This document shows positions 11,004-38,000 of a DNA stretch of 41,464 nt, one piece after another. The stretch is taken from the NCBI GenBank assembly GCA_964450975.1, contig CAYVFO010000003.1:1-41464 (forward strand), read 5' to 3'. The notes under the pieces were generated by a model. The model was not told where the DNA came from. It made no database searches and saw only the letters and a list, made by a program, of their open reading frames with translations. Positions within the stretch are counted from its first letter, which is position 1; every line of letters starts with the position of its first letter. The stretch comes from an uncultured Elusimicrobia bacterium. Lineage in GTDB: Bacteria > Elusimicrobiota > Elusimicrobia > UBA1565 > UBA9628. The translations under genes were made by a program, and so were the position numbers.

Positions 11004-12802
11004 TGCCCGTCATCAACCGCCTTCCCGAGGAAGTCTTCTCCCGCATCGCCGCCGGCGAGGTCGTCGAACGCCCCGCGTCGCTGCTCAAGGAGCTCATCGA
11101 GAACTCGCTCGACGCCGGCGCCAAACGCGTCGACGTCGAGGTGACCGGCGCGGGCAAGGCCAGCCTGCGCGTCTCCGACGACGGCTGCGGCATGGACCCC
11201 GAGGACGTGAAGCTCTGCCTCGAGCGGCACGCCACGAGCAAGATCTCTCAGTTCGAGGATCTCGACAAGCTCGACACGTTCGGCTTCCGCGGCGAGGCGC
11301 TGTACGCGATCGCCGCCGTCGCCAAGGTCACGATCACGAGCGCCCCGCACGGCGCCAAGACCGGCTGGCGCGTGACCTCCGAGAAGGGCAAGGTCACCGA
11401 CGGTCCCGCGCCCGCGGTGCCCGGCACGACCGTCCTCGTCAAGGACCTGTTCTACAACACGCCCGCGCGCCTCGAGTTCCTCAAGTCCGACGGCGTCGAG
11501 CGCGGCAAGCTCGCGGCCGTGATCGAGGAAGCCGCGCTCGCCAACCCCGGCGTCCGCTTCACCTACAAGTCCGACGGCCGCCAAGTTCTCCGCTTCGAGC
11601 CCGAGAATTCGGGAGATTTCTTCCAGGACTTCGACCTGCGCGCCGCGGCCGTCCTCGGCGACGACCTGGCCGGCGGCCTGCTGCCGATCGACGTCGAGCG
11701 GCCCGGCGTGCGCGTGCGCATGCTGATCTCCTCGTACGACAAGATGCCCTCGTCGCGCGCGTTCCAGTACTTCTTCGTCAACAAGCGCCCGATCGTCTCG
11801 AAGTCGCTGTCGGCCGCGCTCTACAAGGGCTACGGCGAGCACAAGCCGCAGGGCAAGCAGCCCGTCTGCATCGCCTTGCTCGAGCTCAACCCCGACGCCT
11901 TCGACGCGAACGTCCATCCGGGCAAGCGGGAGGTCCGCTTCAAGAACGAGGGCGAGCTCTTCGAGATCGTCTGCGGCTTGACCGCCTCGGCCATCGCGAA
12001 GGCCAAGGCGGCGGCTCCGATCGTCGCCGCCCCGGAGCCCGAGCCCGCGCCTGCGTCCGTCGTCGCGGACGCTCCGGCCGCCGCGCCCGCCAAGGGCGAG
12101 GTCGACGCGCACTATCTCGGCGGCCGGGCGCTCCTGCCCGACGAGTTCAAGCAGCTCAAGCTCGGCGCCGCGGTCGCGCTCTCCGCGCCCGAGGGCGCGC
12201 CGGCGTGGTACACGCCGCCGTTCCGCTACGTCGGCCAGATTGAGCGCAGCTACATGCTCTTCGAGGCGAACGGCGGGCTCTTCATCCTCGACCAGCACGC
12301 CGCAGCCGAGCGCGTGCTCTTCGAGAAGCTCATGGGCGAGATCGAGGACGGCGGCGCGAAGTCCCAGCGCCTCATGATCCCGGTCCCCGTCGACCTGCCG
12401 GCCTCCGCGGTGCGCATGGTGCTCGACAAGGCCGACCGCCTCGCCAAGATCGGCTTCGAGGTCGCCGCTCACGGCAAGAACGGCCTGCACGTGACGGCGG
12501 TGCCCGCGCTTTTCTACCAGGCCGACGACGTCAAGAAGCTCGTGCACCGCGTGGTGGACGGCCTCTCCGATCCCGTCGCCGAGGCCGAGCAGATCCGCCA
12601 CGACGCGATCGCGACGATCGCCTGCAAGGCCGCGGTGAAGGCGCACGACCGGCTCGGCGAGGACGAAGCGTACAAGCTGCTCGACGCGCTCAAGGACTGC
12701 AAGGACGGCTCGTGCTGCCCCCACGGCCGCCGCACGATGCTGGCCCTCAACCGCGACGAGCTCGCCCGCCGCTTCCAGCGCCCCGGCGCGGTTCCGCTCT
12801 AG
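11003..12802 (+). CDS. mutL: DNA mismatch repair protein MutL
   Basis: ATG overlaps the mutS TGA by 1 nt. GHKL ATPase motifs VVERPASLLKELIENSLDAGA and FGFRGEAL. C-terminal CPHGRR. Confidence 0.95.
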   Translation: MPVINRLPEEVFSRIAAGEVVERPASLLKELIENSLDAGAKRVDVEVTGAGKASLRVSDDGCGMDPEDVKLCLERHATSKISQFEDLDKLDTFGFRGEALYAIAAVAKVTITSAPHGAKTGWRVTSEKGKVTDGPAPAVPGTTVLVKDLFYNTPARLEFLKSDGVERGKLAAVIEEAALANPGVRFTYKSDGRQVLRFEPENSGDFFQDFDLRAAAVLGDDLAGGLLPIDVERPGVRVRMLISSYDKMPSSRAFQYFFVNKRPIVSKSLSAALYKGYGEHKPQGKQPVCIALLELNPDAFDANVHPGKREVRFKNEGELFEIVCGLTASAIAKAKAAAPIVAAPEPEPAPASVVADAPAAAPAKGEVDAHYLGGRALLPDEFKQLKLGAAVALSAPEGAPAWYTPPFRYVGQIERSYMLFEANGGLFILDQHAAAERVLFEKLMGEIEDGGAKSQRLMIPVPVDLPASAVRMVLDKADRLAKIGFEVAAHGKNGLHVTAVPALFYQADDVKKLVHRVVDGLSDPVAEAEQIRHDAIATIACKAAVKAHDRLGEDEAYKLLDALKDCKDGSCCPHGRRTMLALNRDELARRFQRPGAVPL

Positions 12803-13609
12803 CTAGAGCTTCTCGAAGCCGACGATGCGGTAGCGCACCGCGCCCAGCTTCGACACCCACGCCAGAAGCCGCGTCGGCCACAGCATCGAGTCGCCGCGCG
12901 GCGCGCCGGCCGCGATCGCGTCGAGAAGCACCGCGTACGTCGGCTGGACGTTCTTGTTGATGTCGCGGTCGAGGATGACGCGCAGGCCCGCGCTCTTCGC
13001 CATCGCGTAGTAGTCGCCCTCGTCCCAGCCCGCGCCGGACTTGCCGTAGCCGACCTCGATCTTCCGGCGGATCCACGAGCCGATCCAGGACTCGCGCGCG
13101 TTCGGGTTCGCGGGCACGAAGTCGGAGAGGCCGATCTTCCCGCCCGGCTTGAGCACGCGCGCGGCCTCGAGGAGGAACTTCCGTCGCGACGGGAAGTGGA
13201 AGATGCACTCGACGGCGAGCACGCGATCGAACGAGGCGTCGGGAAACGGCATTTTGCACGCGTCGCCCTCGACGAACGTCGCGGCCGGCGCGTTCTTGCG
13301 CGCGAGGACGAGCTGGCGCGGATCGATGTTGAGCCCCGTGACCTTCGCGGCCGGGTGCTTCGCCGCGAGCGAGGCGGCCGTGCCTCCGAAGCCGCAGCCC
13401 GCGTCGAGGATCGCCTGGCCGTCATGCAGATCCGCCGCGGCCAGCACCTCGTCGTTGAGCCGGTTCATCGCCGCCGAGAACTCCGCGCGGTCGAGCGTCG
13501 CCGCGCGCGGATTCTCCCAGTAGCCCCAGTGGACGAAGCGCGAGAAGAGCTTCGCGGCGGGTTCCTCCGGCGCGGACAGGATCAGATCGAAGTAGGGAAG
13601 GTCGGTCAT
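12803..13609 (-). CDS. class I SAM-dependent methyltransferase
   Basis: Last 268 codons of track ORF 12803..14677(-). Motif I ILDAGCGFGG; HWGYW motif. ATGA overlap with the upstream OMP gene. Confidence 0.8.
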   Translation of the reverse strand: MTDLPYFDLILSAPEEPAAKLFSRFVHWGYWENPRAATLDRAEFSAAMNRLNDEVLAAADLHDGQAILDAGCGFGGTAASLAAKHPAAKVTGLNIDPRQLVLARKNAPAATFVEGDACKMPFPDASFDRVLAVECIFHFPSRRKFLLEAARVLKPGGKIGLSDFVPANPNARESWIGSWIRRKIEVGYGKSGAGWDEGDYYAMAKSAGLRVILDRDINKNVQPTYAVLLDAIAAGAPRGDSMLWPTRLLAWVSKLGAVRYRIVGFEKL

Positions 13610-14295
13610 TCGGCTCCGAAGACGCGGACTTTCATCGCGAGCGACAGGCGGTTCGTCGCCTTCTCGCCCGACTCGGTGTTGCGGTTGTAGTCGAGCACGA
13701 AGTTGAGGCGGCTCGTGAGGCGGATCTCGGCGCCGACGCCCCACGACGGCGACCAGAAGCTCTCGTCCGTGCGCTGGTTGGAGCGCGCGCCCGTGTTGTC
13801 GTCCTCGACCGTCTGGTTGAGCGAGGAGTTCACGTGCTGGAGGCCTCCCGCGACGAACGGGACGAGACCGAGCTTCTCCTGCAGGTCGAGGCCGAAAAGC
13901 TTGAGGATCGAGATGCGCGCGTAGCGCAGATCGAGCGTGCGCACGCGGCCCTGCTGGTCGCCGTCCGGCCCGACGAAGCGCGTCGAGGCGTCGTTGTAGG
14001 AGGCCTCGAGGCCGTACCGCAGCCGCGTCGGCGCGTCCTCGTCGGTCGAGACGAGCTCGAGCGTCGCGATCGGCCCCCAGGAGCGGTCGACGATGTTCGC
14101 CTCGCGGCCGGTGCTGCCGGTGACGCCGAGGTAAAGGGAGCTCTGCTCGCCCTCTTCCTCCTCGTCCTCCTCTTCCTCGGCCGGCTCCGCGGGCTCCACG
14201 GGCTTCGCGGGGACGGGCTTGGGGGCAATCACGGGCACGGCTCGGGCGGGAAGCGCCAGGAGAAGAAGGACGGCGGCTGTAAGGAGCCCGGCCAC
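13606..14295 (-). CDS. outer-membrane beta-barrel-like protein with acidic linker
   Basis: GTG start. Signal peptide AVLLLLALPARA. Poly-acidic stretch EEEEDEEEEGE. Alternating amphipathic beta-strand patterns follow (LRYGLEASYN, WGVGAEIRLTSRLNFVLDY, RLSLAMKVRVF). Confidence 0.6.
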   Translation of the reverse strand: MAGLLTAAVLLLLALPARAVPVIAPKPVPAKPVEPAEPAEEEEDEEEEGEQSSLYLGVTGSTGREANIVDRSWGPIATLELVSTDEDAPTRLRYGLEASYNDASTRFVGPDGDQQGRVRTLDLRYARISILKLFGLDLQEKLGLVPFVAGGLQHVNSSLNQTVEDDNTGARSNQRTDESFWSPSWGVGAEIRLTSRLNFVLDYNRNTESGEKATNRLSLAMKVRVFGAE

Positions 14296-14300
14296 GAGGC

Positions 14301-14314
14301 AGTATAGCTATAAT
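14301..14314. promoter_or_regulatory. back-to-back divergent -10 boxes
   Basis: Minus-strand TATACT (14306 to 14301) lies 5 nt before GTG 14295. Plus-strand TATAAT (14309-14314) lies 6 nt before GTG 14321. Confidence 0.5.
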
Positions 14315-14320
14315 GATCAC

Positions 14321-14710
14321 GTGGAGCCCAAGCGCCGGCGCGCGCGCGCGATGTTCGAGGCGGTGTTCGCCTTCTTCCTCTGCCTCACGCTCTACGGACT
14401 CGTCATGCTGGGCTCGGTCTGGGCGCCGGTCTTCCTCGGCGGCCCGAAGCTCAAGCCTCTCGTCGCCTACATCCTCATGCCGATGGACCTCGTGATGCTC
14501 GGCTGGAACCAGAAATGGCCCGTGTTGGTCCTGCACCTCGGCTCGGCGGGAATCGCGTACTACCTGTCCAAGAACTCCGCGCCGAAGATGTACGACCTCA
14601 TGATCTTCGCCTTCGCCGGCTGCGCCCTCGTCGCCGCCGCCAACGACGCGATCAAAGCCTACCGTCATCCTCCGCACGTAAAACCGAAGGTTGACGCCAA
14701 GGCGTCTTAA
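14321..14710 (+). CDS. small multi-pass membrane protein, unknown function
   Basis: Basic N-terminus VEPKRRRARA followed by about 4 hydrophobic helices. GTG 14321 fits TATAAT-N6-GTG; ATG 14351 is the alternative. Confidence 0.6.
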   Translation: MEPKRRRARAMFEAVFAFFLCLTLYGLVMLGSVWAPVFLGGPKLKPLVAYILMPMDLVMLGWNQKWPVLVLHLGSAGIAYYLSKNSAPKMYDLMIFAFAGCALVAAANDAIKAYRHPPHVKPKVDAKAS

Positions 14711-14726
14711 CTCCTACCCTCCGCCC

Positions 14727-15467
14727 ATGGACGAAGAGAACAGAAAGATCATCATCGCGGGCGCCGTGCTCGCCGCCGTCGTCGGCGGCGGCCTCTACGC
14801 CTACAAGACTCTCAACGCCCCCGCCGCGGCGCCCGGTCTGTCGTCGGCGCCCGGCGCGCCCGCCGCTCCCGCGAACCCCTCTCTGCCGCCGCTCGAGGAG
14901 AGCGACGACGCCGTCCGCCGCTCCGCGGCCGGCCTCTCCCCGGACGCCGTCTACGCCGCGTGGCTCAAGCAGGAGGCGCTCGTCCAGCGCTACGCCGCCG
15001 CGGTCTCCCACATCGCGCGCGGCGCGGTGCCTCGCGACGCCCTCGTCTCGCTCGCCCCGCGCGGAAAGTTTCCCGTCCTCAAGCGCGGCGGCAAGATCTA
15101 CGCCGACCCGAAAGGCTGGGCGCGCTACGACGGCCTGACCGCCGCGATCTCCTCCGTCGACGTGAATGGTTTCGTCGCGCTCTACGGCGAGCTCGAGCCG
15201 CTGGTCGAGGAAGCCTGGCGCGGCTTGGGCGAGAAGGGCACGGCGCGCGAGGCCTTCGCCGCAGCCGCGACGGAGCTCGCGGGAACGCCGGATCTCTCCG
15301 GCGACGTCGAGCTCGTGGAAGGCAAGAAAGGGATCACGTACAAATTCGCCGATCCCAAGCTCGAGGGCCTCTCGGCCGCGCGCAAGCAATTGCTGCGCTT
15401 CGGGCCGCGCAACGCGTCGAACGTGAAGGTGAAGCTCGGCGCGCTGGCGGAAGCGCTTAGGCCCTAG
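14727..15467 (+). CDS. DUF3014-like membrane-anchored protein
   Basis: N-terminal TM IIIAGAVLAAVVGGGLY. Motifs LPPLEESDDAVR and YKFADPKLEGLSAARKQLLRFGPRNA match my recollection of DUF3014. TTGACG-N18-TACCCT-N6-ATG lies upstream. Confidence 0.6.
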   Translation: MDEENRKIIIAGAVLAAVVGGGLYAYKTLNAPAAAPGLSSAPGAPAAPANPSLPPLEESDDAVRRSAAGLSPDAVYAAWLKQEALVQRYAAAVSHIARGAVPRDALVSLAPRGKFPVLKRGGKIYADPKGWARYDGLTAAISSVDVNGFVALYGELEPLVEEAWRGLGEKGTAREAFAAAATELAGTPDLSGDVELVEGKKGITYKFADPKLEGLSAARKQLLRFGPRNASNVKVKLGALAEALRP

Positions 15468-15514
15468 GAGCTCTTCCTCACGGGCCGTACGCCCGTTCGT
15501 CCCGCGACCGGGCG

Positions 15515-16015
15515 TTAAGGCTTGACTAAAGCGTCCGTCGGGATCAGGAAGACGTTCTTGACGATCGTGCGGCCGCCGTCGCGCCAGTCCTGAATCGCCA
15601 CCTTGTCGGCGCCGATGCCCTTGAAGTAAATCTTGCGGTGCGCGTACGCGCCGAGCTGCGCCGAGTTCGTCAGCGAGCCGTTGTTGGACGTGACGATGGT
15701 GATGTACGTCGCGTCCGCCTCGTTCTCGACGACCGTCGCGATCACGCCGATCTTGCCGTCCTCGGAGACGAACCAGCGGACGTCCTGCGGCGTGTGGCGC
15801 TCGCCGAGATACTCGGTCTGGCGCACGCACTTCGAGAACTTGAGTGTCGCCGTGCGCGGAGCCGCGTCGGGGTTCGTGCCGTCGGTGAGCCACAGCGCGA
15901 AGGACTTGGTCTGCCACTCGCTCGTCATCGCGTCCTGGGGACACGGAAGCGGGATCTGGACCTGGGCGGCGGCGGGAATCGAGAGAAGGGCGGCGGCGAG
16001 CAGCGAGACGATCAT
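15515..16015 (-). CDS. secreted hypothetical protein
   Basis: ATG 16015 is preceded by GGAGG (8-nt spacer) and an upstream TATAAT. Signal peptide MIVSLLAAALLSIPAAAQ. No recognisable domain. Confidence 0.6.
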   Translation of the reverse strand: MIVSLLAAALLSIPAAAQVQIPLPCPQDAMTSEWQTKSFALWLTDGTNPDAAPRTATLKFSKCVRQTEYLGERHTPQDVRWFVSEDGKIGVIATVVENEADATYITIVTSNNGSLTNSAQLGAYAHRKIYFKGIGADKVAIQDWRDGGRTIVKNVFLIPTDALVKP

Positions 16016-16107
16016 CGGCGGATACCTCCGGGATAGAATCCCTATAGGTATTATAACCCGCCCCGGGCCCCCCGCATGGGGCAAAAGACCCGGAACCGCC
16101 CGTGTAA

Positions 16108-16587
16108 TTAGTCCTTGATGGAGGACTTCTTCTCGAGCCAGACGCCCAGGAGCGTGTGCACCTTGCGGGCGATTTCGAGCTCCCGCTCGTACTCTTCGAG
16201 GAACCTCAGGAAGGCCTTGTTCTCCTCGGCCGAGTGCGAGCCCCCCTTGGTGTAGGCGCGGTAGTAGGACTGCCCGTCCTCGAAGTACTGCACGCGGACC
16301 GCGAGGTCCTTCGCGACCTCGGCGGCGGTGTCGAGCGTGCCGGCGGGGCGCGCCGGAATGGCGGGCGGCATGAGAACGGGCTTGGCCGGCTCCGCGGCCT
16401 TCGGCGGCTCGGGCGCGGGCGTCACGGGCGCCGCGGGCGCGGCGGACTCCGCCGGCTTCGTCTCGGCGGGCGCGGCCTGGGCGACGGTCGAGCCGGAGCC
16501 GGGAAGCCCGGGAAGATCGGCGGCAAGGACCGGCGCGGCGATGAGCAAGAGGGAAGATAAGATCATGGTCCCAAGCGTAGCAGGCAT
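16108..16587 (-). CDS. secreted Ala/Pro-rich hypothetical protein
   Basis: Signal peptide (MILSSLLLIAAPVLAA), A/P/E/K-rich linker, helical C-terminal domain. Start is 16587 or 16566. Confidence 0.55.
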   Translation of the reverse strand: MPATLGTMILSSLLLIAAPVLAADLPGLPGSGSTVAQAAPAETKPAESAAPAAPVTPAPEPPKAAEPAKPVLMPPAIPARPAGTLDTAAEVAKDLAVRVQYFEDGQSYYRAYTKGGSHSAEENKAFLRFLEEYERELEIARKVHTLLGVWLEKKSSIKD

Positions 16588-16625
16588 GGACCTATTTGTC
16601 CACGCGCGCGAACGGGTCTTGACGG

Positions 16626-16690
16626 TTTTTTGATTTTTCTTTTCGTCGTTTGAGAGGGGGTCTTGACGCCCGGAAAATCGGGGCTATACT
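16626..16690 (+). promoter_or_regulatory. strong sigma70-type promoter with AT-rich UP-like element
   Basis: TTGACG (16663-16668), 16-nt spacer, TATACT (16685-16690). It is preceded by the T-rich tract ttttttgatttttcttttcgtcgtttgag (16626-16654), which is exceptional in this GC-rich DNA. Confidence 0.6.
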
Positions 16691-16696
16691 CAAATC

Positions 16697-16954
16697 AGAT
16701 CCGCTCCGAAGCGAGTCGTTCGTGAGTTCGCAGACGCAATTCGTCGACGCGAGGTGGACGCCGGGTGAGGCTGCGGCCGTAAACGGCGACCTTCGGGCGT
16801 GGCGGTTCGTGGCTGGTGCCGTCGTATCGGGCGCGTCGTCGCGGTTGTTGCCGCCGAGACGCGAGGGCGCGCCCGGCGTGATGGTTCGGAGCGGGTCCTT
16901 TGAGGCGCCGAGGCGGTCCCCTAGTGGACGCCGGTCTCGGCGCCTCCTTATTTT
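16697..16954 (+). ncRNA. unclassified structured small RNA candidate (about 200-260 nt)
   Basis: Lies between the promoter above and an intrinsic terminator. No credible CDS on either strand. A 13-bp end-closing helix pairs 16698-16710 with 16885-16897. Local hairpins include a C(UUCG)G tetraloop (16790-16797) and GCCG-UAAA-CGGC (16776-16787). Confidence 0.5.
16903..16954 (+). terminator. rho-independent terminator
   Basis: GC-rich stem AGGCGCCGAG (16903-16912) pairs with CTCGGCGCCT (16936-16945), followed by CCTTATTTT. Convergent with the queE 3' end. Confidence 0.6.
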
Positions 16955-17001
16955 GTGGCCAAAACGGCCAACACCGCGACTACCGGGAAGCCTGACACCG
17001 G

Positions 17002-17718
17002 TTACGGCAGGTTCCAGAGGTGGTGCCACTGCGGGCGCAGGTGCACCTCTTTGACCACGCGGCGAGCGGCCGCCTCGAAGCGCAGGGCGCGCTCGGGCTC
17101 GATCGGCTTGGCGCCGCCGAAGGGCGTCGCCGGCTGCAGGTACAGGGGAACGGGGCGCGGCGAGCGCTTCACGAGGTCCAAAACTTTCTTCCACTCGTCG
17201 TCGGTCGTCTTGCTCGTGAGCACGACCTTGATGAACGTGCCGGGCGGCGCGGCGCGCAGGAAGTCGCGGTGCGCGGTCCAGTGCTCGCGGCCCGTGGACG
17301 AAGGCAGCTTCACGTCCATCGCGACGGCGTCGCACAGCGGCGCGAGCGCGCTCATCGGAACCGGCAGCGTGCCGTTCGTCTCGAGGTGGTTCTCGAGGCC
17401 GTTCTTGTGCGCCCAGCGCATCAGCGGCATGAGGAACTGCGCGTGGAGGAGCGGCTCTCCCCCCGTCCAGGAGATCGAGCGGTGCGCGCGCTCGTGCGCG
17501 AGCTGGCGGATCTCCTCCTTGACCCATTCGGCGGTCCTGATCTCGCCGGAGGGGATGGGGATCGTGTCGGGCTCGTCGCAGTAGTCGCAGTGGAGGTTGC
17601 AGCCGCCGAGGCGCGCGAAGATCTGCCGCTCGCCAAGGCGCGGGCCCTCGCCCTGCAGAGACGAGAATATCTCGACGACCCGCGCGCGGGTCTCGTCCGA
17701 CAGAGCGAGCGTCTTCAA
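17002..17718 (-). CDS. queE: 7-carboxy-7-deazaguanine synthase
   Basis: SLQGEGP and radical SAM motif [12 protein letters not shown] start overlaps the queC TGA (TTGA). Confidence 0.88.
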
Positions 17719-18389
17719 GCGGCCGGGTCCTTCCTGCCGGCCTCGCGGAAGCCCTTCGCCCGCAGCTTGCAGGAGTCGCACGTCCCGCACTGGCGCCTGC
17801 CGCCCGCGTAGCACGACCACGTGAGCTCGAGCGGCGCGCCGACCTTCTCGGCCAGGCGCACGACGCCTTTCTTGTCGAGGCGCAGGAGCGGCGCGTAGAT
17901 CTTGAGCGGCTTGCCCTCGGAGCCGCGCTTGGTGCCTTCCTTGGCGACCTTGCCGAACGCGTCGATGAACGGCGGGCGGCAGTCCGGATAGCCCGAATAG
18001 TCCAGGGCGTTCGCGCCGATGACGATCGCGCTCGCGCCGACGGCGTCCGCCAGCGACACGGCGAGCGAGAGGAACATCGTGTTGCGGCCGGGGACGTAGG
18101 TCGAGGGAACGCCGCCGCTCCCGATCTTGCTCAACGGCATGGACGGCAAACGGATGCTTTTATTGGTCAACGACGACCCTGCCAGCCACGGCAACGACAA
18201 TTCGACCTGGTGGAGCGGGATCGAAGCGGAGCGCGCCACGGCTCGGGCGGAACGGAGTTCGCGGACGTGCCTCTGACCGTAGCGGATGGACAATCCCACG
18301 CAGGCGAAGCCCTTCTTCTTCGCCCAATACAAAGCGGTCGTGCTGTCGAGTCCGCCCGACAGGAGAACGACGGCCTTCGGCTTGCTCAC
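17715..18389 (-). CDS. queC: 7-cyano-7-deazaguanine synthase
   Basis: [10 protein letters not shown]-loop. C-terminal Zn cluster [18 protein letters not shown] start overlaps the upstream TGA (GTGA). Confidence 0.9.
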
Positions 18390-28197: not shown

Positions 28198-30726
28198 ATG
28201 AGGTTCGCAGCCGCCCTACTCTCCCTTTCGCTGATCGGCACTTCGATGCCGCTCGACGCCTCCGCCCAGGTCGTGCGCGTGGCGGTCGGCGAGGCGGGCA
28301 TCGCGCCCGTCGCGCCCGTCGGCAATTCGATCTCCGGCTCCAACCTCGCTCCCAATCTCTCGATCGGCGCGGCCACGCTCACCGGCGGCCTCTCCGCGCC
28401 CTCGATCGCGCCGGCTCCGTCCGCGCTGAACGGCGCCGTTTCCGTCAAAGCCGTTCCTTCCGCTCTCGCACCCGTCCTTTCCGCCCCCTCCACCGAGCAG
28501 CCTGAAAAGCCCGAGACCCCGAAGCAGGCCGCGACGCCCGTCGCGCCGGCCAAGGCGAAGAAGTGGTGGAACACCCCGATCACCGAGCTCCTCGGCCTCA
28601 AGAAGCCCGCCGAGGCGAAGTCCGAGCAGAAGACCACGACCGCCGAGACGGCCTCCGTCGAAGGCGCGGTCCAGTTCGACGGCGTCTCCGAGAAGAAGGG
28701 CTCCGTCGAGGGCGCGCCCGTCGTCGAGGGCGACAACTCCAAGGCCTTCAAGGCCGGACAGAAGCTCGGCAAGTTCGTCCGCCAGCAGAACGTCAAGCGC
28801 AACGCCTCCGTCGACGAGTTCGGCGGCCCCCTCTCCGAGCCGATGACCTTCAAGCAGCGCGTGGGCTACGGCCTCTCGCGCGGCCTCCACATGATCGGCA
28901 TCGGCGCGATCATGACCGTCGGCCTCAAGCCACTGCTCGACGCGTGGGCCTGGCCCTCGATCATCAGCGACTCGGCGCTCCAGGGCTTCGGCCGCGTGGC
29001 GCTGCTCACAAAGTTCGGCCCCAACGAGATCGTCGAAGGGCTCGCCAACAACCCGATCGGCTTCATGGGCTTCTCTCTGCCGTGGGCGGTCACGATGGAG
29101 GAGATCTCCTTCCGCCTGCTCGGCTTCGGCCTGACCTTCCTCGTCATCGCCGCGGTCCGCCCGTTCTCGCGCTGGGTTTCGAAGATGATCAGCGGCCTGC
29201 CCGACGCGGCGGGCGCCGTGACCGGCGTGCAGCGCTTCCTCAAGCTCGGCGACGTGACCTCCCGCTACGCGTTCCCGATCGCGGCGATCTACTCCTCGTT
29301 CCAGTTCGCCGTCGCGCACTTCGGCGCGTGGGGCGTCGACCCGTACATCCTGCTCGTCAACGGCGTGCTCGGCGTGTTCCTCGCGCACACGGCCTACAAG
29401 TCGCGCAGCATCGTCGCGCCGATCGTCGCGCACCTCCTCTTCAACCTCTCCGTCTTCGCCGTGATCCTCGCCGGCATCGTCTGGTCGCCCGCGACCGCGC
29501 TGATGATCGCGATCGTCATGGGCCTGCTCGGAAGCGCCTCGCTGCTCTACTCGTGGCTGATGGCCCGCAAGATCAAGAAGTTCCAGATCAACGGCGCGAT
29601 GTCCATCGTGGCGCTCGCGCTCGCCGGCTCGCTGCTCACGGGCGTCAACCCGCCGAGCAAGGGCGACCTCGCCCGCGCGTTCAACTCCCACTCCACCCGC
29701 GGCGACATCACGCTCGTCCAGGAAGCCGTCAAGCCCGGCGCCGCCGTGGGCGCGGCCGTCTCGGCCGGCGGCGTCGCGCCCGACTCGACGAAGGCGGCCG
29801 TCGCCCCCGTGATCGAGCCGCGCGAAGTCATGACCGCGCGCGTGAAGGGCGCGGTCGTCAACGTCATCGTCAGGATGCCCCAGGGCATGGGCACCGGGTC
29901 CGGCTTCATCATCACGCCCGACGGCATGTTCATCTCCAACGCTCACGTCACGGGCACGCGCAAGCCCGGCGAGTTCGTCGAGGCCCGCATCCCCGGCGTC
30001 AACGGCATCGTCCGCGCCAAAGTCCTCGCCGCCAATCACGACAAAGACATCGCGATCCTCCAGCTCGCGCCGCGCATGGACGGCAAGCCGTGGCCGACGG
30101 TCCCGCTCGCGAAGAACCCGCCGCTCGAGGGCGAGCAGGTGACCGCGATGGGCTACCCGCGCGGCCTGCCCTTCACCGTGACGGCGGGCGTCATGTCCGG
30201 CCTCGAGGGCCGCGGCAACATGTACGTGCAGCACCTGCAGACCGACGCCTCGATCAACCCCGGCAACTCCGGCGGCCCGCTGTTCAACGCTGCGGGCGAA
30301 GTCGTCGGCATGAACACCCAGATCTTCACGATGAGCGGCGGCTCCGACGGCCTCGGCTTCTCGATCACCGCTCCCGCGATCCAGATGGCGATCGATCAGT
30401 ACCTCAAGACCGGCAACATGGCCACCGCGTCGCTCGGCATCATCGCCAACCTCTCGGACCCGAACAAGCCCGAGGCGGGCCTCGAGATCGAGTACGTGAA
30501 GTCCGGCTCCGCCGCCGAGGCCGCCGGCCTCAAGCGCGGCGACCTCATCGTCGCGGTCGGCGACATGCCGATCATGGAAGGCGGCCAGGAAGCCGCGCTC
30601 AAGATCGCCCTCGCCCTCTCCCGCCATACGCCCGGCGAGCAGGTCGACGTCACCGTGCTCCGCGCCGACGAGAAGCACGTCATCAAGGTGAAGGTCGACG
30701 CGAAAGTCACGGGCGAGTCGCGCTAG
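28198..30726 (+). CDS. fusion protein: signal peptide + Ala/Pro/Ser leader + CPBP (CAAX/Abi) intramembrane protease + HtrA-like serine protease + PDZ
   Basis: CPBP motifs MEEISFR (EExxxR), FAVAH (FxxxH), HLLFN (HxxxN). S1C triad contexts SNAHV, DKDIAIL, GNSGGPLF. PDZ-like tail GLKRGDLIVAVGD. TACACT (28185-28190) lies 7 nt before the ATG. The upstream 134 codons of the track ORF are rejected. Confidence 0.75.
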   Translation: MRFAAALLSLSLIGTSMPLDASAQVVRVAVGEAGIAPVAPVGNSISGSNLAPNLSIGAATLTGGLSAPSIAPAPSALNGAVSVKAVPSALAPVLSAPSTEQPEKPETPKQAATPVAPAKAKKWWNTPITELLGLKKPAEAKSEQKTTTAETASVEGAVQFDGVSEKKGSVEGAPVVEGDNSKAFKAGQKLGKFVRQQNVKRNASVDEFGGPLSEPMTFKQRVGYGLSRGLHMIGIGAIMTVGLKPLLDAWAWPSIISDSALQGFGRVALLTKFGPNEIVEGLANNPIGFMGFSLPWAVTMEEISFRLLGFGLTFLVIAAVRPFSRWVSKMISGLPDAAGAVTGVQRFLKLGDVTSRYAFPIAAIYSSFQFAVAHFGAWGVDPYILLVNGVLGVFLAHTAYKSRSIVAPIVAHLLFNLSVFAVILAGIVWSPATALMIAIVMGLLGSASLLYSWLMARKIKKFQINGAMSIVALALAGSLLTGVNPPSKGDLARAFNSHSTRGDITLVQEAVKPGAAVGAAVSAGGVAPDSTKAAVAPVIEPREVMTARVKGAVVNVIVRMPQGMGTGSGFIITPDGMFISNAHVTGTRKPGEFVEARIPGVNGIVRAKVLAANHDKDIAILQLAPRMDGKPWPTVPLAKNPPLEGEQVTAMGYPRGLPFTVTAGVMSGLEGRGNMYVQHLQTDASINPGNSGGPLFNAAGEVVGMNTQIFTMSGGSDGLGFSITAPAIQMAIDQYLKTGNMATASLGIIANLSDPNKPEAGLEIEYVKSGSAAEAAGLKRGDLIVAVGDMPIMEGGQEAALKIALALSRHTPGEQVDVTVLRADEKHVIKVKVDAKVTGESR

Positions 30727-31813: not shown

Positions 31814-32101
31814 CTAGGCGCCGAGCGCGTTCCACCAGTCGGCCAGCATCCGCTTCCGCTTCTTCGCGTCGTCCTGCGCGGTCAGGACGTCGAGGAAGGA
31901 TTGGGAAATCGCGTGATAGCCTTGGGCGCCCCCGCCCGCCACCCAGCAGTGCATGAGCAAAGCGCCGCACGACGCGCACTTGCCGACCGTGAACTCGACG
32001 CCCTCGGCGGAGCCGACGTCGGCCGAGCCGGACAGCTCTTCGGTCAGGCGTGCGAATTCCTGAGATGGACAGCAGTCCATGGAACTTTTAGGGCCGCTCA
32101 T
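31814..32101 (-). CDS. small Cys-rich hypothetical protein
   Basis: MDCCPSQ...GKCASCGALLMHCW contains six Cys. TACTCT (32114 to 32109) lies 7 nt before ATG 32101; ATG 32080 is the alternative. Track start 32182 lies in low-GC palindromic DNA and is doubted. Confidence 0.4.
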   Translation of the reverse strand: MSGPKSSMDCCPSQEFARLTEELSGSADVGSAEGVEFTVGKCASCGALLMHCWVAGGGAQGYHAISQSFLDVLTAQDDAKKRKRMLADWWNALGA

Positions 32102-32218
32102 TCGTATGAGAGTAGAAGAATTGCCGGCCCGCCGCCAGAGAAATTGACTAGCTCTAGAGTCAGTCAATGGCTTAGAAGCCATCGAACAAGCACCGGTGCG
32201 CGTGATTATCAGTAGTAG

Positions 32219-33590: not shown

Positions 33591-35084
33591 TTATTTGACG
33601 GGCTGCTTGGCCGGAGGAACCAGGCGGGCGCCGGGGTTCGGAACGCCGACCTTCTTGAGGATCTGGTCGACGACCTGGTCGGTGGTCAGGTTGTTCGCCT
33701 GGTAGCCGAGCGTGACGCGGTGGCGCAGGATGCGGTGAGCCACGTCGCGGACGTCCTGAGGCGAGACCCACGCGCGGCCGTTGAGGAGCGCGTTGATCTT
33801 GGCGGCCTTGAGGAGGAAGATGGCCGCGCGCGGCGAGGCGCCGGACTCGATCGCGTCCTTCGCGTCGATGCCGTACTTCGCCGGGTTGTGCGTCGCCTCG
33901 ATGATGTTGACGATGTAGTCGTCGATCGCGGGATCGACGTGGACCTGCTCGGCGATCTTGCGGATCGCGACGAGCTCATCAAGGGAGGTGATCTTGCCGG
34001 CCTTCGGCTGGCCCTCTTTCTTGGAGAACCGGTTCATGATCTCCTTGAGCTGCTCCATCGTCGGGCGGGGCACGAGGACCTTGTACATGAAGCGGTCCTG
34101 CTGGGCCTCGGGCAGGCGGTAGACGCCTTCCTGCTCGATCGGGTTCTGCGTCGCGAGCACCATGAACGGCTTCGGCAGCTCGAGCGTCTTGCGCGCGATC
34201 GTGACGCGGCCCTCGGCCATGGCCTCGAGGAGCGCGGCCTGCGTCTTCGGCATCATGCGGTTGATCTCGTCGACGAGCAGGATGTTCGTGAACACCGGGC
34301 CCTGGACGAGCTTGAACGCCTTCTCGCCGGTCGCCGGGTCTTCCTGCACGATCTCGGAGCCGAGGATGTCGGACGGGAGCTTGTCGGGCGTGCCCTGCAC
34401 GCGCTCGAACTGGCCCTCGACCGCGTCGGAGAACGCCTTGACGGTCTGCGTCTTGGCGACGCCGGGGACGCCTTCGAGGAGGACGTGCTCGGAGGCGATC
34501 ATCGCGGTGATGATCGAGTCGATCATGTCTTCCTGGCCGACGATGACCTTCGCGATCTCGGCGCGGATGCCCTTCACGACCGCGGCCTTCTCGACGATCG
34601 TCTGCGCGAGCGCCGCGTCGCCGCCCGCGTACGGGGAGGCGGCGGCGTCGACGGAAGGAGCCGAGGCGATCAGCGACTCGCCGGTGAGCGCGGCTTCGAG
34701 CGCGTTGCCCGCGCCGTGGACCTGCCCCGTCGGAGCCTTGCCCAAGTTCGGCATCGCGGCGAGAGCGTTCGTCGCGTTCGTCATCCGCTCGGCGGCGGAG
34801 GCCGCGGAGGTCACGGGCTTGAGGGCCGCCGGAACCGCGGCGGCCGCGGCCGGGATGACCGAGGGAGCCGGGAGCAGCGAGGGCGTCAGGGCCGAGCCCA
34901 GGCCCAGCGTCGGAGCCGCGAGCGCCGGCGCGCCGAGCGTGACCGAGGGCGCCGCGATGCCCGCGCCGAGCGCGGGAGCGACGGTGCCCGCCGGCACGCG
35001 CCCGCGCAGCTGCGCGGAAGCGGGCATCGGCGCGGCGATCATCGCCGCCAGTCCGAGATTGATGATGCTGGGAACTTTCTTCAT
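33591..35084 (-). CDS. MoxR-family AAA+ ATPase with about 170-aa N-terminal signal-like Ala/Pro-rich extension
   Basis: Last 497 codons of track ORF 33591..38246(-). Walker A EGVPGVAKTQ, Walker B ILLVDEINR, and VIVGQEDMI typical of MoxR. AGGAG lies 5 nt before ATG 35084. Confidence 0.85.
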   Translation of the reverse strand: MKKVPSIINLGLAAMIAAPMPASAQLRGRVPAGTVAPALGAGIAAPSVTLGAPALAAPTLGLGSALTPSLLPAPSVIPAAAAAVPAALKPVTSAASAAERMTNATNALAAMPNLGKAPTGQVHGAGNALEAALTGESLIASAPSVDAAASPYAGGDAALAQTIVEKAAVVKGIRAEIAKVIVGQEDMIDSIITAMIASEHVLLEGVPGVAKTQTVKAFSDAVEGQFERVQGTPDKLPSDILGSEIVQEDPATGEKAFKLVQGPVFTNILLVDEINRMMPKTQAALLEAMAEGRVTIARKTLELPKPFMVLATQNPIEQEGVYRLPEAQQDRFMYKVLVPRPTMEQLKEIMNRFSKKEGQPKAGKITSLDELVAIRKIAEQVHVDPAIDDYIVNIIEATHNPAKYGIDAKDAIESGASPRAAIFLLKAAKINALLNGRAWVSPQDVRDVAHRILRHRVTLGYQANNLTTDQVVDQILKKVGVPNPGARLVPPAKQPVK

Positions 35085-35092
35085 AGACGCTC

Positions 35093-38000
35093 CTAAGGGT
35101 TCTTCGGCTGCTTGGCTTTCGGCTGCAGCGCCAGCTCGAGGCTTTCGAGCGGGTCGCCTTCGGTGGAAATCTTGATCGGGCGCAGGCGCGCGGCCTCGAA
35201 CGCCGTCTCGATCATCTGCTCGCGGCGGGAGATCAAAGCGCCCTGCTCGCGGCGGACTTCGGAAGAGGAGGTGTCGAGCACGCGGGTCGTCCCCGTCTCG
35301 GCGTCCTCGACGGGCAGGAGGCCCACGTCGGGGAGCGGCTGGAGCTCCGCGGGATCGCTCACGCGGATCGGGCGCACGTCGTGGCGCGCGGCGAGCGAGC
35401 CGAGCGCGTCCTTGAAGTCGGCGGAGATGAAGTCGGAGATGACGGCGACCATCGAGCGCGAGACGAGGACCTTGCCCGCGGTGTCGAGGCCGGGCTTGAG
35501 GTCGGTCGTCTGGCCCTGCGCCTCGGCGTTCAGGATCGCCTCGATGAGCTGCATCGCGTGCTTCTGGCCGCCCTTGGGCGGGATCACGGTCTCGACGCGG
35601 TCGGAGACGAGGATCAGGCCGACGCGCACGTTGTGGCGCGTCGCCGCGAGCGCGATCACCGCGGCCGCGTCCTGGATCGCCGCGCGCTTCTCGACGCCCG
35701 TGGTGCCGACGCGGCCGGACTTGGAGACGTCGACGACGAGCATGAGCGGCATGTCGCGCTCGAGCTCGAACTTCTTCGCGTAGAGCTCGTCCTTCTTCGC
35801 GGAGGTCTTCCAGTCGATCTCGCGGGCGTCCTCGTTCTCGTACGGGCGGGCCTCGGCGAACTCGGTGCCGCCGGCGCCGATGAAGCGCGAGCGGAACGAG
35901 CCGCCGGAGACGGCGGTCGCGAGGCGGCGCGCGGAGAGCTCGATGCGGCGGTGGCGCGCGAGCGTCTTGGCCTCGATCGTGTCGCGGCCGGCCTCGGCGG
36001 CGAGGCGGGCCTCCTCCTCCTTGGCCTGCGCCTTGGAGAGCATGCGCCAGACGACGAACGCGGCGCCGATGCCGACGGCGGCGAAGAGCAGGAGCGGAAC
36101 GGCGCCGAGCACGGGCAGCGCGGCGAGCATGAGCGGCGAGAAGGCGTGCTGCGTCTTCTTGCCCTCGTGAGCGGCGAGCGCGCGGTCGGCGGCGCGGAGC
36201 GCCTCGTCGATCGTCTCGGCCTCGGCGTCGGTCAGGTCGCGCGGCGTCGTGCCGTCGCCCTCCCAGCCCTTGCCCGACTTCTTGATGCCCTCGAGCCACG
36301 TCTTGAGCTTCACGACGTCGGCCTTGGAGTATTTCTCGCGGTACTCGCCGGAGCCGTAGCCGGCGCCGTTGGAGTCCATGAGGCCCATCGCGCGCAGCTT
36401 CTCGGTGAACGTCGAGCCCGGGAACACGGTGTAGCCCTTCTGCAGGCGGCTGTTGAGGAGCTCGGCGGAGATCTCCGCGGGATCGTCGCCGGCGGCGACG
36501 CCGGAGGCGGCCGCGATGCGCTCGTAAAGAGGAAGGAGGGTCTTGGCCTTCTCGAACGCCTTGCGCTGCTCGGCGGTGGGCTTCTTGACCTTGGCCATCG
36601 CCGAGTCGGAGGCCGCGCGCAGCTCGCGGTAGTGGCGAAGCGTGAACGGCTCGCGCCAGGAGTCGTCGTCCTCGCGCGCGCCCGAGTTGACGTTCGCGTC
36701 CTTGAGCTTGTCGAGGACCTTCTCGAGCTCCTCGCCGACTTCGGTCGCGCCCTTCGCCGCGCGCTCGGACGCGGCCTCGGCCATGAGCTTGCCGGCGGGG
36801 GTCTTGAGGCCGGCGAGCAAGGCCTCGAGCTGCGGCTTCTCCGAGGGCGTGCCGGCGACGGCCTCGGACACGAGGTCGAGGACCTGAGCGACGTCGGCGG
36901 AGTCGTGACCGGGACGCGCCTTGAGGATTTCGATGAGGACGTCCTGCGCGCGGACGGCGAAGCCCGCGTCCTTGGCGCGCGCCTTGAGCGCGACCGTCAG
37001 GCGCACGAGCGCGAGCGACTCCTGACCGGGGCGCATCACCTCGGTCTTGAGGTCGGCTCCCTTGGTCGCGGCGGGGCCGCCGAAGCGCTTGGCCAAGATC
37101 TCGTCGAAGCGGTCGATGGCGCCGGTGAGGAAGACCTTCTCGTTCCACGTGAGGTCGCGCGGCGAGGAGCCGAGCGACTTGCCGCCGGCGGCGGTCTTCA
37201 CGAGCCACGCGCGGATGGCCTCGAGCTCGGCCTTCGTGTAGGTCTGCCGGTAGTCGGAGAGGTTGTTGCCCGCGCCGGGCATGAGCTTCGCGGCGCGCAG
37301 CGCCTCGTTGAACTCGGAGGCGGTGAACAGGCGGTAGCCGGCGAGCAGGACGACGTTGGCCTCGTCGGCCGCGATCTCGCCGACGGAATCGCCGGCGGGC
37401 GCGCCCGCGAGGGCGGCCAGAGCCTTGTAAGAGGAGATCGTCTTGCGCGCGGTCTCGGCGGCGGCCTTCATCTCGGGCGTGAGCTTGCCCGCGGCGCGCG
37501 CCTGGTTTTCGGCTTCCGTGATGCCGTCGATGATCGACTGGTAATGGCGCAGCTTGAGGTCGGAGCGCCAGGCGTACTCGGACTCGCGCGCGCCCACGAG
37601 CAGGTTCGCGGTCTTGAGGCCGGCGAACGCCGACTCGGCCTTCTCGGCCGCGGCCTTCAGACCCTCGCCGGCGCGCTCGCGCGCGGCGGGAGCGAAAGCG
37701 GCGCCGTTCGGCGTCTTGAGGACGGACGTGAGCGCGTCGACCGCGACGGACTCGGCCGGCTTGCCCTTCACCGAGGCGAGGATCTGCTTGAGGAGGGCGT
37801 TCGCGTCGGCGGCGTCGAAGCCGGGGCGGCCGACCTGCGCGAAGAGCTTGGTCTCGACGTCGAGCGCGGCGGAGTCGCCCTTCGCCGTGAGCTCGCGCGA
37901 GAGCTTCGCGATGAGGAGCGAGTCCTCGTCGGAGGCGTCGAGCGCCTTCTCGGACGGGAAGCGAGCGGCGCGGACGGCCTCGACCTGCTCGATCGCGCCG

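Follow-up and report, generated by a model that had tools for sequence, protein, structure and literature searches.

A MoxR-type AAA+ ATPase with a conserved signal-peptide-like leader behind a giant fused Bat-type gene in an uncultured Elusimicrobia bacterium

MoxR ATPases count as chaperones of the cytoplasm, while it is unclear what the Bat/MoxR membrane system does. Canonical MRP-type members, such as the Cytophaga hutchinsonii protein of PDB entry 2R44 and Borrelia BB0176, which occurs with BB0173, combine an AAA_3 with an AAA_lid_2 domain and have intact ATPase motifs, and in canonical MoxR-DUF58-VWA (Bat) operons the gene adjoins DUF58, VWA and TPR partners. Here we describe a moxR gene with these same features in a 41,464-nucleotide stretch of DNA from an uncultured Elusimicrobia bacterium (contig CAYVFO010000003.1 of GenBank assembly GCA_964450975.1; hereafter the window), which is C3 in an assembly of 3.03 Mb that is 81% complete and has a GC content of about 69%. 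Unlike canonical MoxR proteins, its product has about 155 extra N-terminal residues, in which a signal-like helix is followed by a spacer and then by a motif. Unlike in canonical operons, the partners are fused in one protein of about 3,000 amino acids (aa) that is encoded upstream instead of downstream. The locus thereby presents an entire Bat system in one protein, with a secretion-type leader on its MoxR.

The canonical part of the moxR product (P0001; coordinates of all features are collected in Table 1) includes VIVGQ at residues 180-184. Pfam models matched AAA_3 at residues 200-333 (E 1e-55, 187.7 bits against a cut-off of 27) and AAA_lid_2 at residues 408-475 (63.3 bits, cut-off 22.7), with no match N-terminal to residue ~159. 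The 331-aa MoxR of 2R44 aligned with residues 170-481 (E 4.7e-74), query residue 170 falling on its residue 18. From this alignment, and from canonical paralogues of related genomes, in which 54 aa precede Walker A, we put the N-terminal extension at about 150-156 aa, shorter than the 170 aa given in a first-pass annotation that a model had made from the sequence. Walker A, Walker B (D272, E273), N314, R331 and R419 were invariant in 26 aligned sequences, so that sensor 1, the arginine finger and sensor 2 are preserved as well. As far as its motifs tell, the ATPase is intact, and judged by its domains, its motifs and its VWA and DUF58 neighbours it is a member of the MoxR/MRP subfamily of AAA+ ATPases.

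The same genome (G000) also encodes leaderless MoxR-then-DUF58 pairs with an ordinary 330-aa MoxR (C117:7046-8462 and C175:4096-5032). Given these ordinary pairs, the leader-bearing pair is an extra, specialised paralogous system of reversed order, with the DUF58 end first and MoxR second.

The start of moxR lies where the first-pass annotation had placed it. On the minus strand the giant open reading frame (ORF) stops at TAG 35095-35093, eight nucleotides (GAGCGTCT) follow, and the moxR ATG occupies 35084-35082, preceded by an AGGAG Shine-Dalgarno sequence (SD). From there the frame runs to TAA 33591-33593 and specifies 497 residues. The N-terminus reads MKKVPSIINLGLAAMIAAPMPASA/QLRGRV (the slash marks the putative cleavage site) and continues through an Ala/Pro/Gly/Ser/Leu-rich stretch into the standard MoxR core. 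The basic n-region, hydrophobic core and AxA site reported earlier are present in the translation, and the G+C bias at third codon positions (GC3) described for the stretch ahead of VIVGQ and GVPGVAKT was confirmed, with values of 0.92 for the leader, 0.93 for spacer residues 25-95 and 0.96 for the core. A TAAGGAG-type SD over the stop codon of the upstream ORF is kept at 10 orthologous loci, in all complete orthologues, and these start with ATG-AAG-AAG (MKK) or with MKT, 4-6 nucleotides past the SD. The comparison of orthologues that had been proposed as a check bore the leader out: 12 of them keep the frame, the MKK...ASA/Q start and the coupled SD, and 18 database proteins likewise retain frame, start and SD. 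Since GC3 matches the frame, since frame, start and SD are kept, since the ratio of non-synonymous to synonymous substitution rates (dN/dS) is below 1 and since no internal start is conserved, we consider the leader translated, and the 497-aa MoxR is almost certainly made whole, as one chain from ATG 35084.

The first residues have most attributes of a signal for Sec export and signal peptidase I (SPase I), namely a basic n-region, an h-region of 7-15 hydrophobic residues and positions -3 and -1 taken by small amino acids, as seen in MKK, IINLGLAAMIAA and PMPASA/Q. The absence of early basic residues from the mature part is an attribute that they lack, as R27 lies at +3 and R29 at +5; in E. 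coli, early basic residues after the cleavage site disfavour Sec export. Past the A-x-A site follow 64 residues without Asp, Glu or Lys. In an AlphaFold2 model built from the 26-sequence alignment, residues 1-95 were disordered, with a predicted local distance difference test score (pLDDT) of about 30. Residues 94-109 and 119-134 formed helices (pLDDT 53-69), and the confident core began at residue 157 (pLDDT 80-90). The helices belong to a motif at residues 96-136 with the consensus ERM..A..ALAAMP.L.KA....GAG.ALE.ALTG, in which L108, P112, A117, G126, E130, A132 and T134 were invariant in the 26 sequences. The leader is more than the low-complexity sequence described earlier; its conserved two-helix motif had been overlooked. 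Neither Pfam nor NCBIfam contained a family that matches the leader.

We searched 40 relatives and obtained full-length matches in ten genomes of the same genus (residues 1 to ~490, 63-76% identity, stop-free), as well as more distant ones in other families of the order. Alignments of 12 and of 26 sequences displayed the same succession of a conserved signal-like start, a variable uncharged spacer, an invariant-rich motif and a variable linker. The dN/dS values in Table 1, calculated by the Nei-Gojobori method for eight members of the genus, indicate that the leader is under purifying selection. When residues 1-172 alone were used as query, a database search returned 18 proteins of 484-510 aa, all of them MoxR, two of which NCBI names Elusimicrobiota. 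In 301 sampled genomes of the phylum, the leader motif was matched only in the genus of the window and in two further genera of the same family; partial matches were obtained from a second family of the order, and elsewhere only the canonical N-terminal helix and core were matched. By these searches the MoxR subfamily is found only in one order of Elusimicrobiota among the genomes covered. Searches of the literature on Elusimicrobia MoxR, on MoxR signal peptides and the periplasm, and on Elusimicrobia signal peptides and secretion found no description of a signal-bearing MoxR or of such a leader.

The contig end cuts the giant partner of the window, and its full architecture was read from complete orthologues, which measure 2,777-3,217 aa. 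Synteny of giant and moxR is kept at all complete loci, and in three genomes the ATG of the giant gene is preceded by an AT-rich intergenic stretch. The 3,217-aa orthologue (P0002) begins with a signal-like start and a leader of ~170 aa in the same style, followed by a second, intact-looking signal-like segment (GRSLKRGLAILALS...AAAQ/G). Next come a beta-rich domain with a transmembrane (TM) segment, a BatA_N match at residues 547-617 that remains below the cut-off (E 1.3e-4) with a VWA domain and a TM segment, TPR at residues 940-1036, KPGDG repeats and a second TM-VWA-TM module. After these, helical repeats extend over about 1,100 residues and are followed by a hydrophobic hairpin and DUF58 (residues 2965-3176); three VWA domains are present overall. 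Pfam did not detect BatD in P0002; its architecture suggests that the beta-rich domain with its TM segment is BatD-like. With MoxR, DUF58, BatA_N-VWA and TPR all recognisable in the predicted proteins, the locus is a member of the Bat/MoxR-DUF58-VWA membrane system.

The leader extends beyond moxR and the giant gene. When GC3-selected ORFs from the entire assembly were scanned heuristically, 36-46 proteins combined a signal-like start with an uncharged Pro/Ala-rich stretch; the classes are defined by heuristic filters, the strictest of which missed the MoxR of the window, and the 'signal-only' class used for comparison is noisy. Among 36 such leader proteins, the hydrophobic run has a median of 11.5 residues (h-region typically 9-15 aa), 27 have a small-x-small/Q site, 16 have an FDG island (aromatic-Asp-Gly) 80-180 residues in, and an 'ALKP' element often stands at the end of the spacer (12/36). 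Gln occupies +1 in 57% of the leader class and in 8% of the other A-x-A signal-like N-termini of the genome. For Arg at +3 the corresponding values are 32% and 6%, and for Asp or Glu at +2 to +8 they are 8% and 47%. This enrichment relative to other signals indicates that the A-x-A/Q-x-R-V junction is part of the leader module and not an organism-wide habit.

In the MoxR of the window, the small-x-small/Q site and R-V box (ASA/QLRGRV) and the uncharged Pro/Ala spacer (~50 to 90 residues) of this class are present; the FDG island is absent from its leader, and the GAG.ALE.ALTG motif stands in its place. Conversely, in the MoxR proteins of L080 (G296:C4, same genus) and L016 (G013:C125), an RFDGA island replaces GAG.ALE.ALTG at the leader end. 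From these sequences, the closing element of the leader seems exchangeable.

Sec/SPase I signals, including those of the Bacteroidetes 'Q-rule', in which Gln stands at +1, resemble the leader in that the n-region is basic, the h-region spans 10-12 aa, Pro serves as helix breaker and Gln comes after A-x-A. They differ from it in that here an Arg is conserved at +3 to +7, at least the next 60 residues are uncharged and the passenger is an ATPase. In contrast to the Q-rule, Gln at +1 is here confined to the leader class, and the glutaminyl cyclase family PF05096, which was sought as support for a general Q-rule, was not found in the 81%-complete genome.

The passengers of the leader are mixed in their usual locations. 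Pfam analysis of 20 leader proteins identified families that are usually extracytoplasmic (Endonuclease I, peptidase M28, HtrA-PDZ, ChaN-like and Exo_endo_phos). The same analysis identified passengers that must start in the cytoplasm or need ATP: an ABC exporter, an ATP-grasp (LAL_C2)-MFS fusion, an acyltransferase/AMP-binding (Aas-like) enzyme, HpcH aldolase and a PD-(D/E)XK nuclease. In these cytoplasmic-type passengers no hydrophobic segment separates the leader from the domain, and the leader of the ABC exporter precedes its first TM segment. MoxR is therefore one instance of a broader paradox among leader-bearing proteins.

Leader proteins are also poor in Cys, which makes up 0.04-0.12% of the residues in leader ORFs, 0.56% in other signal-like ORFs and 0.85-1.01% in the rest of the genome (Mann-Whitney p = 1e-11), and 77-85% of the leader ORFs are wholly Cys-free. 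Not a single Cys occurs in the 3,217-aa giant, in the 2,123 giant codons of the window, in the 1,438-aa ABC exporter or in the phosphoesterase downstream of moxR. The mature part of MoxR has 0 Cys in 12/12 orthologues. As the canonical 330-aa MoxR paralogues have just 0-1 Cys each, the Cys count of MoxR itself is weak evidence on localisation, and we rejected it as a localisation marker because it does not discriminate. Genes for the DsbA family and SPase I are present in the genome.

On which side of the membrane the leader ends can be approached from related proteins. L020 (994-2814) and L021 (916-2532) belong to the same genus, share 69% identity and are each immediately preceded by a DUF58-type ORF. 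What sets them apart is a clean insertion between motif and core, which contains a hydrophobic segment of 36 aa that has a Pro at its centre and is flanked on either side by basic residues. Homologous 40-aa segments were found in L019/L079, L024 and L081, with an Arg-rich stretch before and KKDKDK or RRSDG after. Whether or not an orthologue has the segment, its ATPase has to stay on the same side; the segment should therefore be a two-pass hairpin, with the leader end and the ATPase on one side of the membrane. The basic flanks of the predicted hairpin suggest that this side is the cytoplasm. The basic n-region of the giant's second signal-like segment reads GRSLKRG, the TM segment after the beta-rich domain is followed by RRLYPKLDAKR (five basic residues), a loop inside BatA_N has seven basic residues, and DUF58 follows a hairpin with basic flanks. 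The VWA domain of the BatA-like BB0173 was experimentally shown to be exposed to the periplasm (PMC5700661). Taken with this finding, the positive-inside rule gives as best-fitting topology of the giant one in which both its leader end and DUF58 are cytoplasmic. The ABC and MFS passengers point the same way, since a leader end outside the cytoplasm would leave these transporters inverted. The Arg conserved at +3 to +7 in the leader class likewise speaks for the cytoplasm, as early basic residues disfavour Sec export in E. coli. Judged by these charge patterns and passengers, leader end and ATPase probably lie on the same, cytoplasmic, side. These orthologues belong to another family of the order; their Gly/Ala-rich hydrophobic hairpin of 36-42 aa (...LQLYMPAI...) occurs in one species of a genus and is absent in another. 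In the leader-bearing CPBP-HtrA-PDZ protein of the window (28198-30726), where the periplasmic HtrA domain could mark the side of the leader, 7 or 8 TM segments can be counted, which leaves their parity ambiguous.

On this basis we favour a reading in which the ATPase is cytoplasmic and is held at the membrane by its leader beside the DUF58 end of the giant, with the two-helix motif as contact piece, although we would put the chance that it is correct at about even. MoxR is always encoded directly after, and in translational coupling to, the Bat-fusion gene of ~3,000 codons, whose product comprises a BatD-like part, BatA- and BatB-like VWA modules, TPR, helical repeats, a TM hairpin and DUF58. 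The leader is a lineage-specific module in which a signal-like helix ending in A-x-A/Q is followed by an R-V box, a Pro/Ala spacer without charge and, at the end, a short island of conserved residues, the last of which is replaced in the MoxR copy by the two-helix motif. Its hydrophobic helix would tether MoxR to the inner membrane, the flexible spacer of ~70 residues would provide reach, and the conserved helical motif would touch the giant partner or the ATPase ring. In this way the MoxR hexamer may be kept near the cytoplasmic DUF58 end of the giant, which it would remodel with ATP. The first-pass annotation had proposed either an uncleaved anchor or a tether to the giant; a tether or anchor is the reading that we favour as well. 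That annotation had overlooked the genome-wide module of some 40 unrelated proteins.

A functional analogy exists with FtsH, a membrane-anchored AAA+ protein, and with TonB and TolA, where, as proposed here, a hydrophobic N-terminus and a flexible or Pro-rich spacer position a working domain relative to the membrane. The hydrophobic N-termini of FtsH, TonB and TolA are true TM helices of about 20 residues, unlike the cleavable-looking hydrophobic run of 10-12 residues found here, and the spacer of TonB and TolA is periplasmic and charged, whereas that of the MoxR leader is uncharged.

Several observations weigh against a tether and a cytoplasmic ATPase. The N-terminus has all features of a cleaved Sec signal, and with 10-12 aa its h-region is too short for a stable TM anchor. 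Both the helix-breaking Pro and A-x-A/Q are kept across families. The leader is also found on Endonuclease I, M28 peptidase, HtrA-PDZ and ChaN-like proteins, which are extracytoplasmic elsewhere and have no second hydrophobic segment here. Near-absence of Cys is what would be expected for chains that cross an oxidising compartment unfolded, and the MoxR leader of the window has no segment able to return the chain across the membrane. The topology arguments are based on hydropathy and charge rules, and a different topology of the giant becomes possible if its 38-aa segment 531-568 is a single TM segment, although that arrangement violates the positive-inside rule at two places. If the ATPase is inside, the leader would be a new type of membrane tether, placed at the N-terminus and imitating a signal peptide, and would mislead signal-peptide predictors and secretome estimates for the phylum. 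The system offers natural handles, as the giant is a single-chain topology reporter and the Cys-free ATPase suits single-cysteine accessibility mapping.

A different reading, which we consider possible but rather doubtful, is real export, with SPase I cleaving after ASA and the whole MoxR, spacer first, reaching the periplasm or a place further out. Its targets would then be the periplasm-facing VWA and BatD-like regions of the giant, and it would work on them without ATP or draw on some nucleotide supply outside the cytoplasm. The canonical n-h-c signal with A-x-A/Q in all orthologues fits this, as do the typical exported hydrolases that carry the same leader, the leader on the neighbouring metallophosphoesterase and the periplasmic location reported for the BatA-like VWA of BB0173 (PMC5700661). 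The leader class moreover nearly excludes Cys despite the DsbA homologues, with no Cys in the mature MoxR of all 12 orthologues, but for MoxR itself this count is non-discriminating, as its canonical paralogues have no more than one. What argues against export is that all ATPase motifs are invariant, that the basic-flanked hairpin insertion, the second signal of the giant and the ABC and MFS passengers point to a cytoplasmic leader end, and that a cytoplasmic location is predicted for DUF58, which adjoins MoxR in the gene order. To our knowledge there is no source of ATP outside the cytoplasm, which likewise counts against export of MoxR. An ATPase on the outside would call into question the rule that AAA+ machines operate only at sites of ATP production.

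It is also conceivable, if unlikely, that a dedicated, lineage-specific sorting or processing machinery reads the A-x-A/Q-x-R-V box, the spacer and the island and sets the fate of the ~40 leader proteins, for example by cleavage followed by covalent or non-covalent attachment to the envelope. MoxR would be one client, and this explanation overlaps with both tethering and export. It would account for a box that is specific to the class in Gln at +1, Arg at +3 and the shortage of acidic residues, for the FDG island in 16/36 leaders and its RFDGA form in the MoxR of G296 and G013, and for a Cys exclusion that spans entire polypeptides, including the nucleotide-binding domains of the ABC exporter and the 3,217-aa giant. 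Against it stand the absence of any candidate machinery among the results of this analysis, the failure of known family models to match the leader, and passengers that are too mixed (soluble, polytopic and ATP-dependent) for one destination. A bolder form, on which we are similarly doubtful as on export, is that an intact, ATP-dependent AAA+ chaperone crosses the inner membrane, or has its chain threaded through it via the uncharged, non-helical spacer, by a lineage-specific leader pathway that would serve about 40 other Cys-free proteins, transporters and ATP-using enzymes among them. If such a pathway exists, Elusimicrobiota would have an undescribed protein-sorting or tethering system, and possibly ATP-dependent chemistry beyond the cytoplasm.

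That the leader is an annotation artefact, with translation beginning inside the gene, for instance at GTG 34577, and the 170 codons before it a mere high-GC open frame, is very improbable: spurious long open frames are common at 69% GC, and the MoxR frame is open upstream to 38246, but the upstream start is conserved together with its SD, so is the protein sequence of the leader (dN/dS 0.29-0.56), orthologues have no conserved internal start, and gene callers including that of NCBI predict products of 484-510 aa. The internal GTG, which had been placed near 34560 and offered as a possible real start, actually lies at 34577-34575 (codon 170), and its codon is mostly Ile in orthologues. In the interval from 90 to 20 codons ahead of Walker A, orthologues have no conserved in-frame start with an SD, and L010 has zero candidates. 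GTG 34577 and other internal starts were thus ruled out by the conserved upstream start and SD, the dN/dS of the leader and the want of an internal candidate.

Table 1. Features of the window and of related loci. Single coordinates refer to the window; other locations are given with the locus or contig and genome.
Feature	Location	Strand	Remarks
Giant fused Bat-type partner, C-terminal 2,123 codons, cut by contig end	35093..41464	-	VWA, helical repeats, TM hairpin, DUF58; no Cys; Pfam VWA, VWA_2, DUF58
Shine-Dalgarno AGGAG	35090..35094	-	overlaps TAG 35093-35095 of giant ORF; 5 nucleotides before ATG 35084
Signal-peptide-like segment, residues 1-24	35013..35084	-	n-region MKK, h-region IINLGLAAMIAA (12 aa), c-region PMPASA, then Q25; dN/dS 0.39
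Q-x-R-x-R-V box and uncharged Ala/Pro/Ser/Leu spacer, residues 25-95	34800..35012	-	ends VPAALKPV; pLDDT about 30; dN/dS of spacer 0.56
Leader motif, residues 96-136 (ERMTNATNALAAMPNLGKAPTGQVHGAGNALEAALTGE)	34677..34799	-	two predicted helices; invariant residues; dN/dS 0.29
Variable linker, residues 137-156	34617..34676	-	dN/dS about 1.0 (0.99 for residues 137-160); pLDDT <50; hydrophobic hairpin insertion site in some orthologues
Internal GTG, codon 170	34575..34577	-	no upstream SD; not a conserved start codon
Canonical MoxR AAA+ core and lid, residues 157-497, TAA stop	33591..34616	-	Pfam AAA_3, AAA_lid_2, bpMoxR; dN/dS 0.19
Walker A GVPGVAKT, residues 205-212	34449-34472	-	
Walker B LLVDEINR	34257-34280	-	
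Metallophosphoesterase, 456 aa	32219..33589	-	leader of the same style, no Cys; Pfam Metallophos; ATG 1 nucleotide past moxR stop
Complete giant	L027:4244-13897 (G004)		
Complete giant	L029:4321-13869 (G015)		
Complete giant	L028:6583-14916 (G014)		
ATP-grasp-MFS fusion with leader	G000 C26:11799-14945 (L038)		
Full-length double ABC exporter with leader, 1,438 aa	G000 C30:9004-13320 (L039)		
Acyltransferase/AMP-binding (Aas-like) enzyme with leader	G000 C48:399-3053 (L045)		

In the single-contig genome G020, the giant gene (L025, C1:3472000-3491999) is split over frames at 9297-12116, 12118-13278, 12720-15725 and 14240-18100. These interruptions look like indel errors of a long-read assembly and not like real breaks.

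The metallophosphoesterase gene follows moxR also in G004 and G015, and not in G014. Past it, a small minus-strand ORF of the window (31814-32182) would encode 122 aa with 5 Cys, in sharp contrast to the three Cys-free genes upstream.

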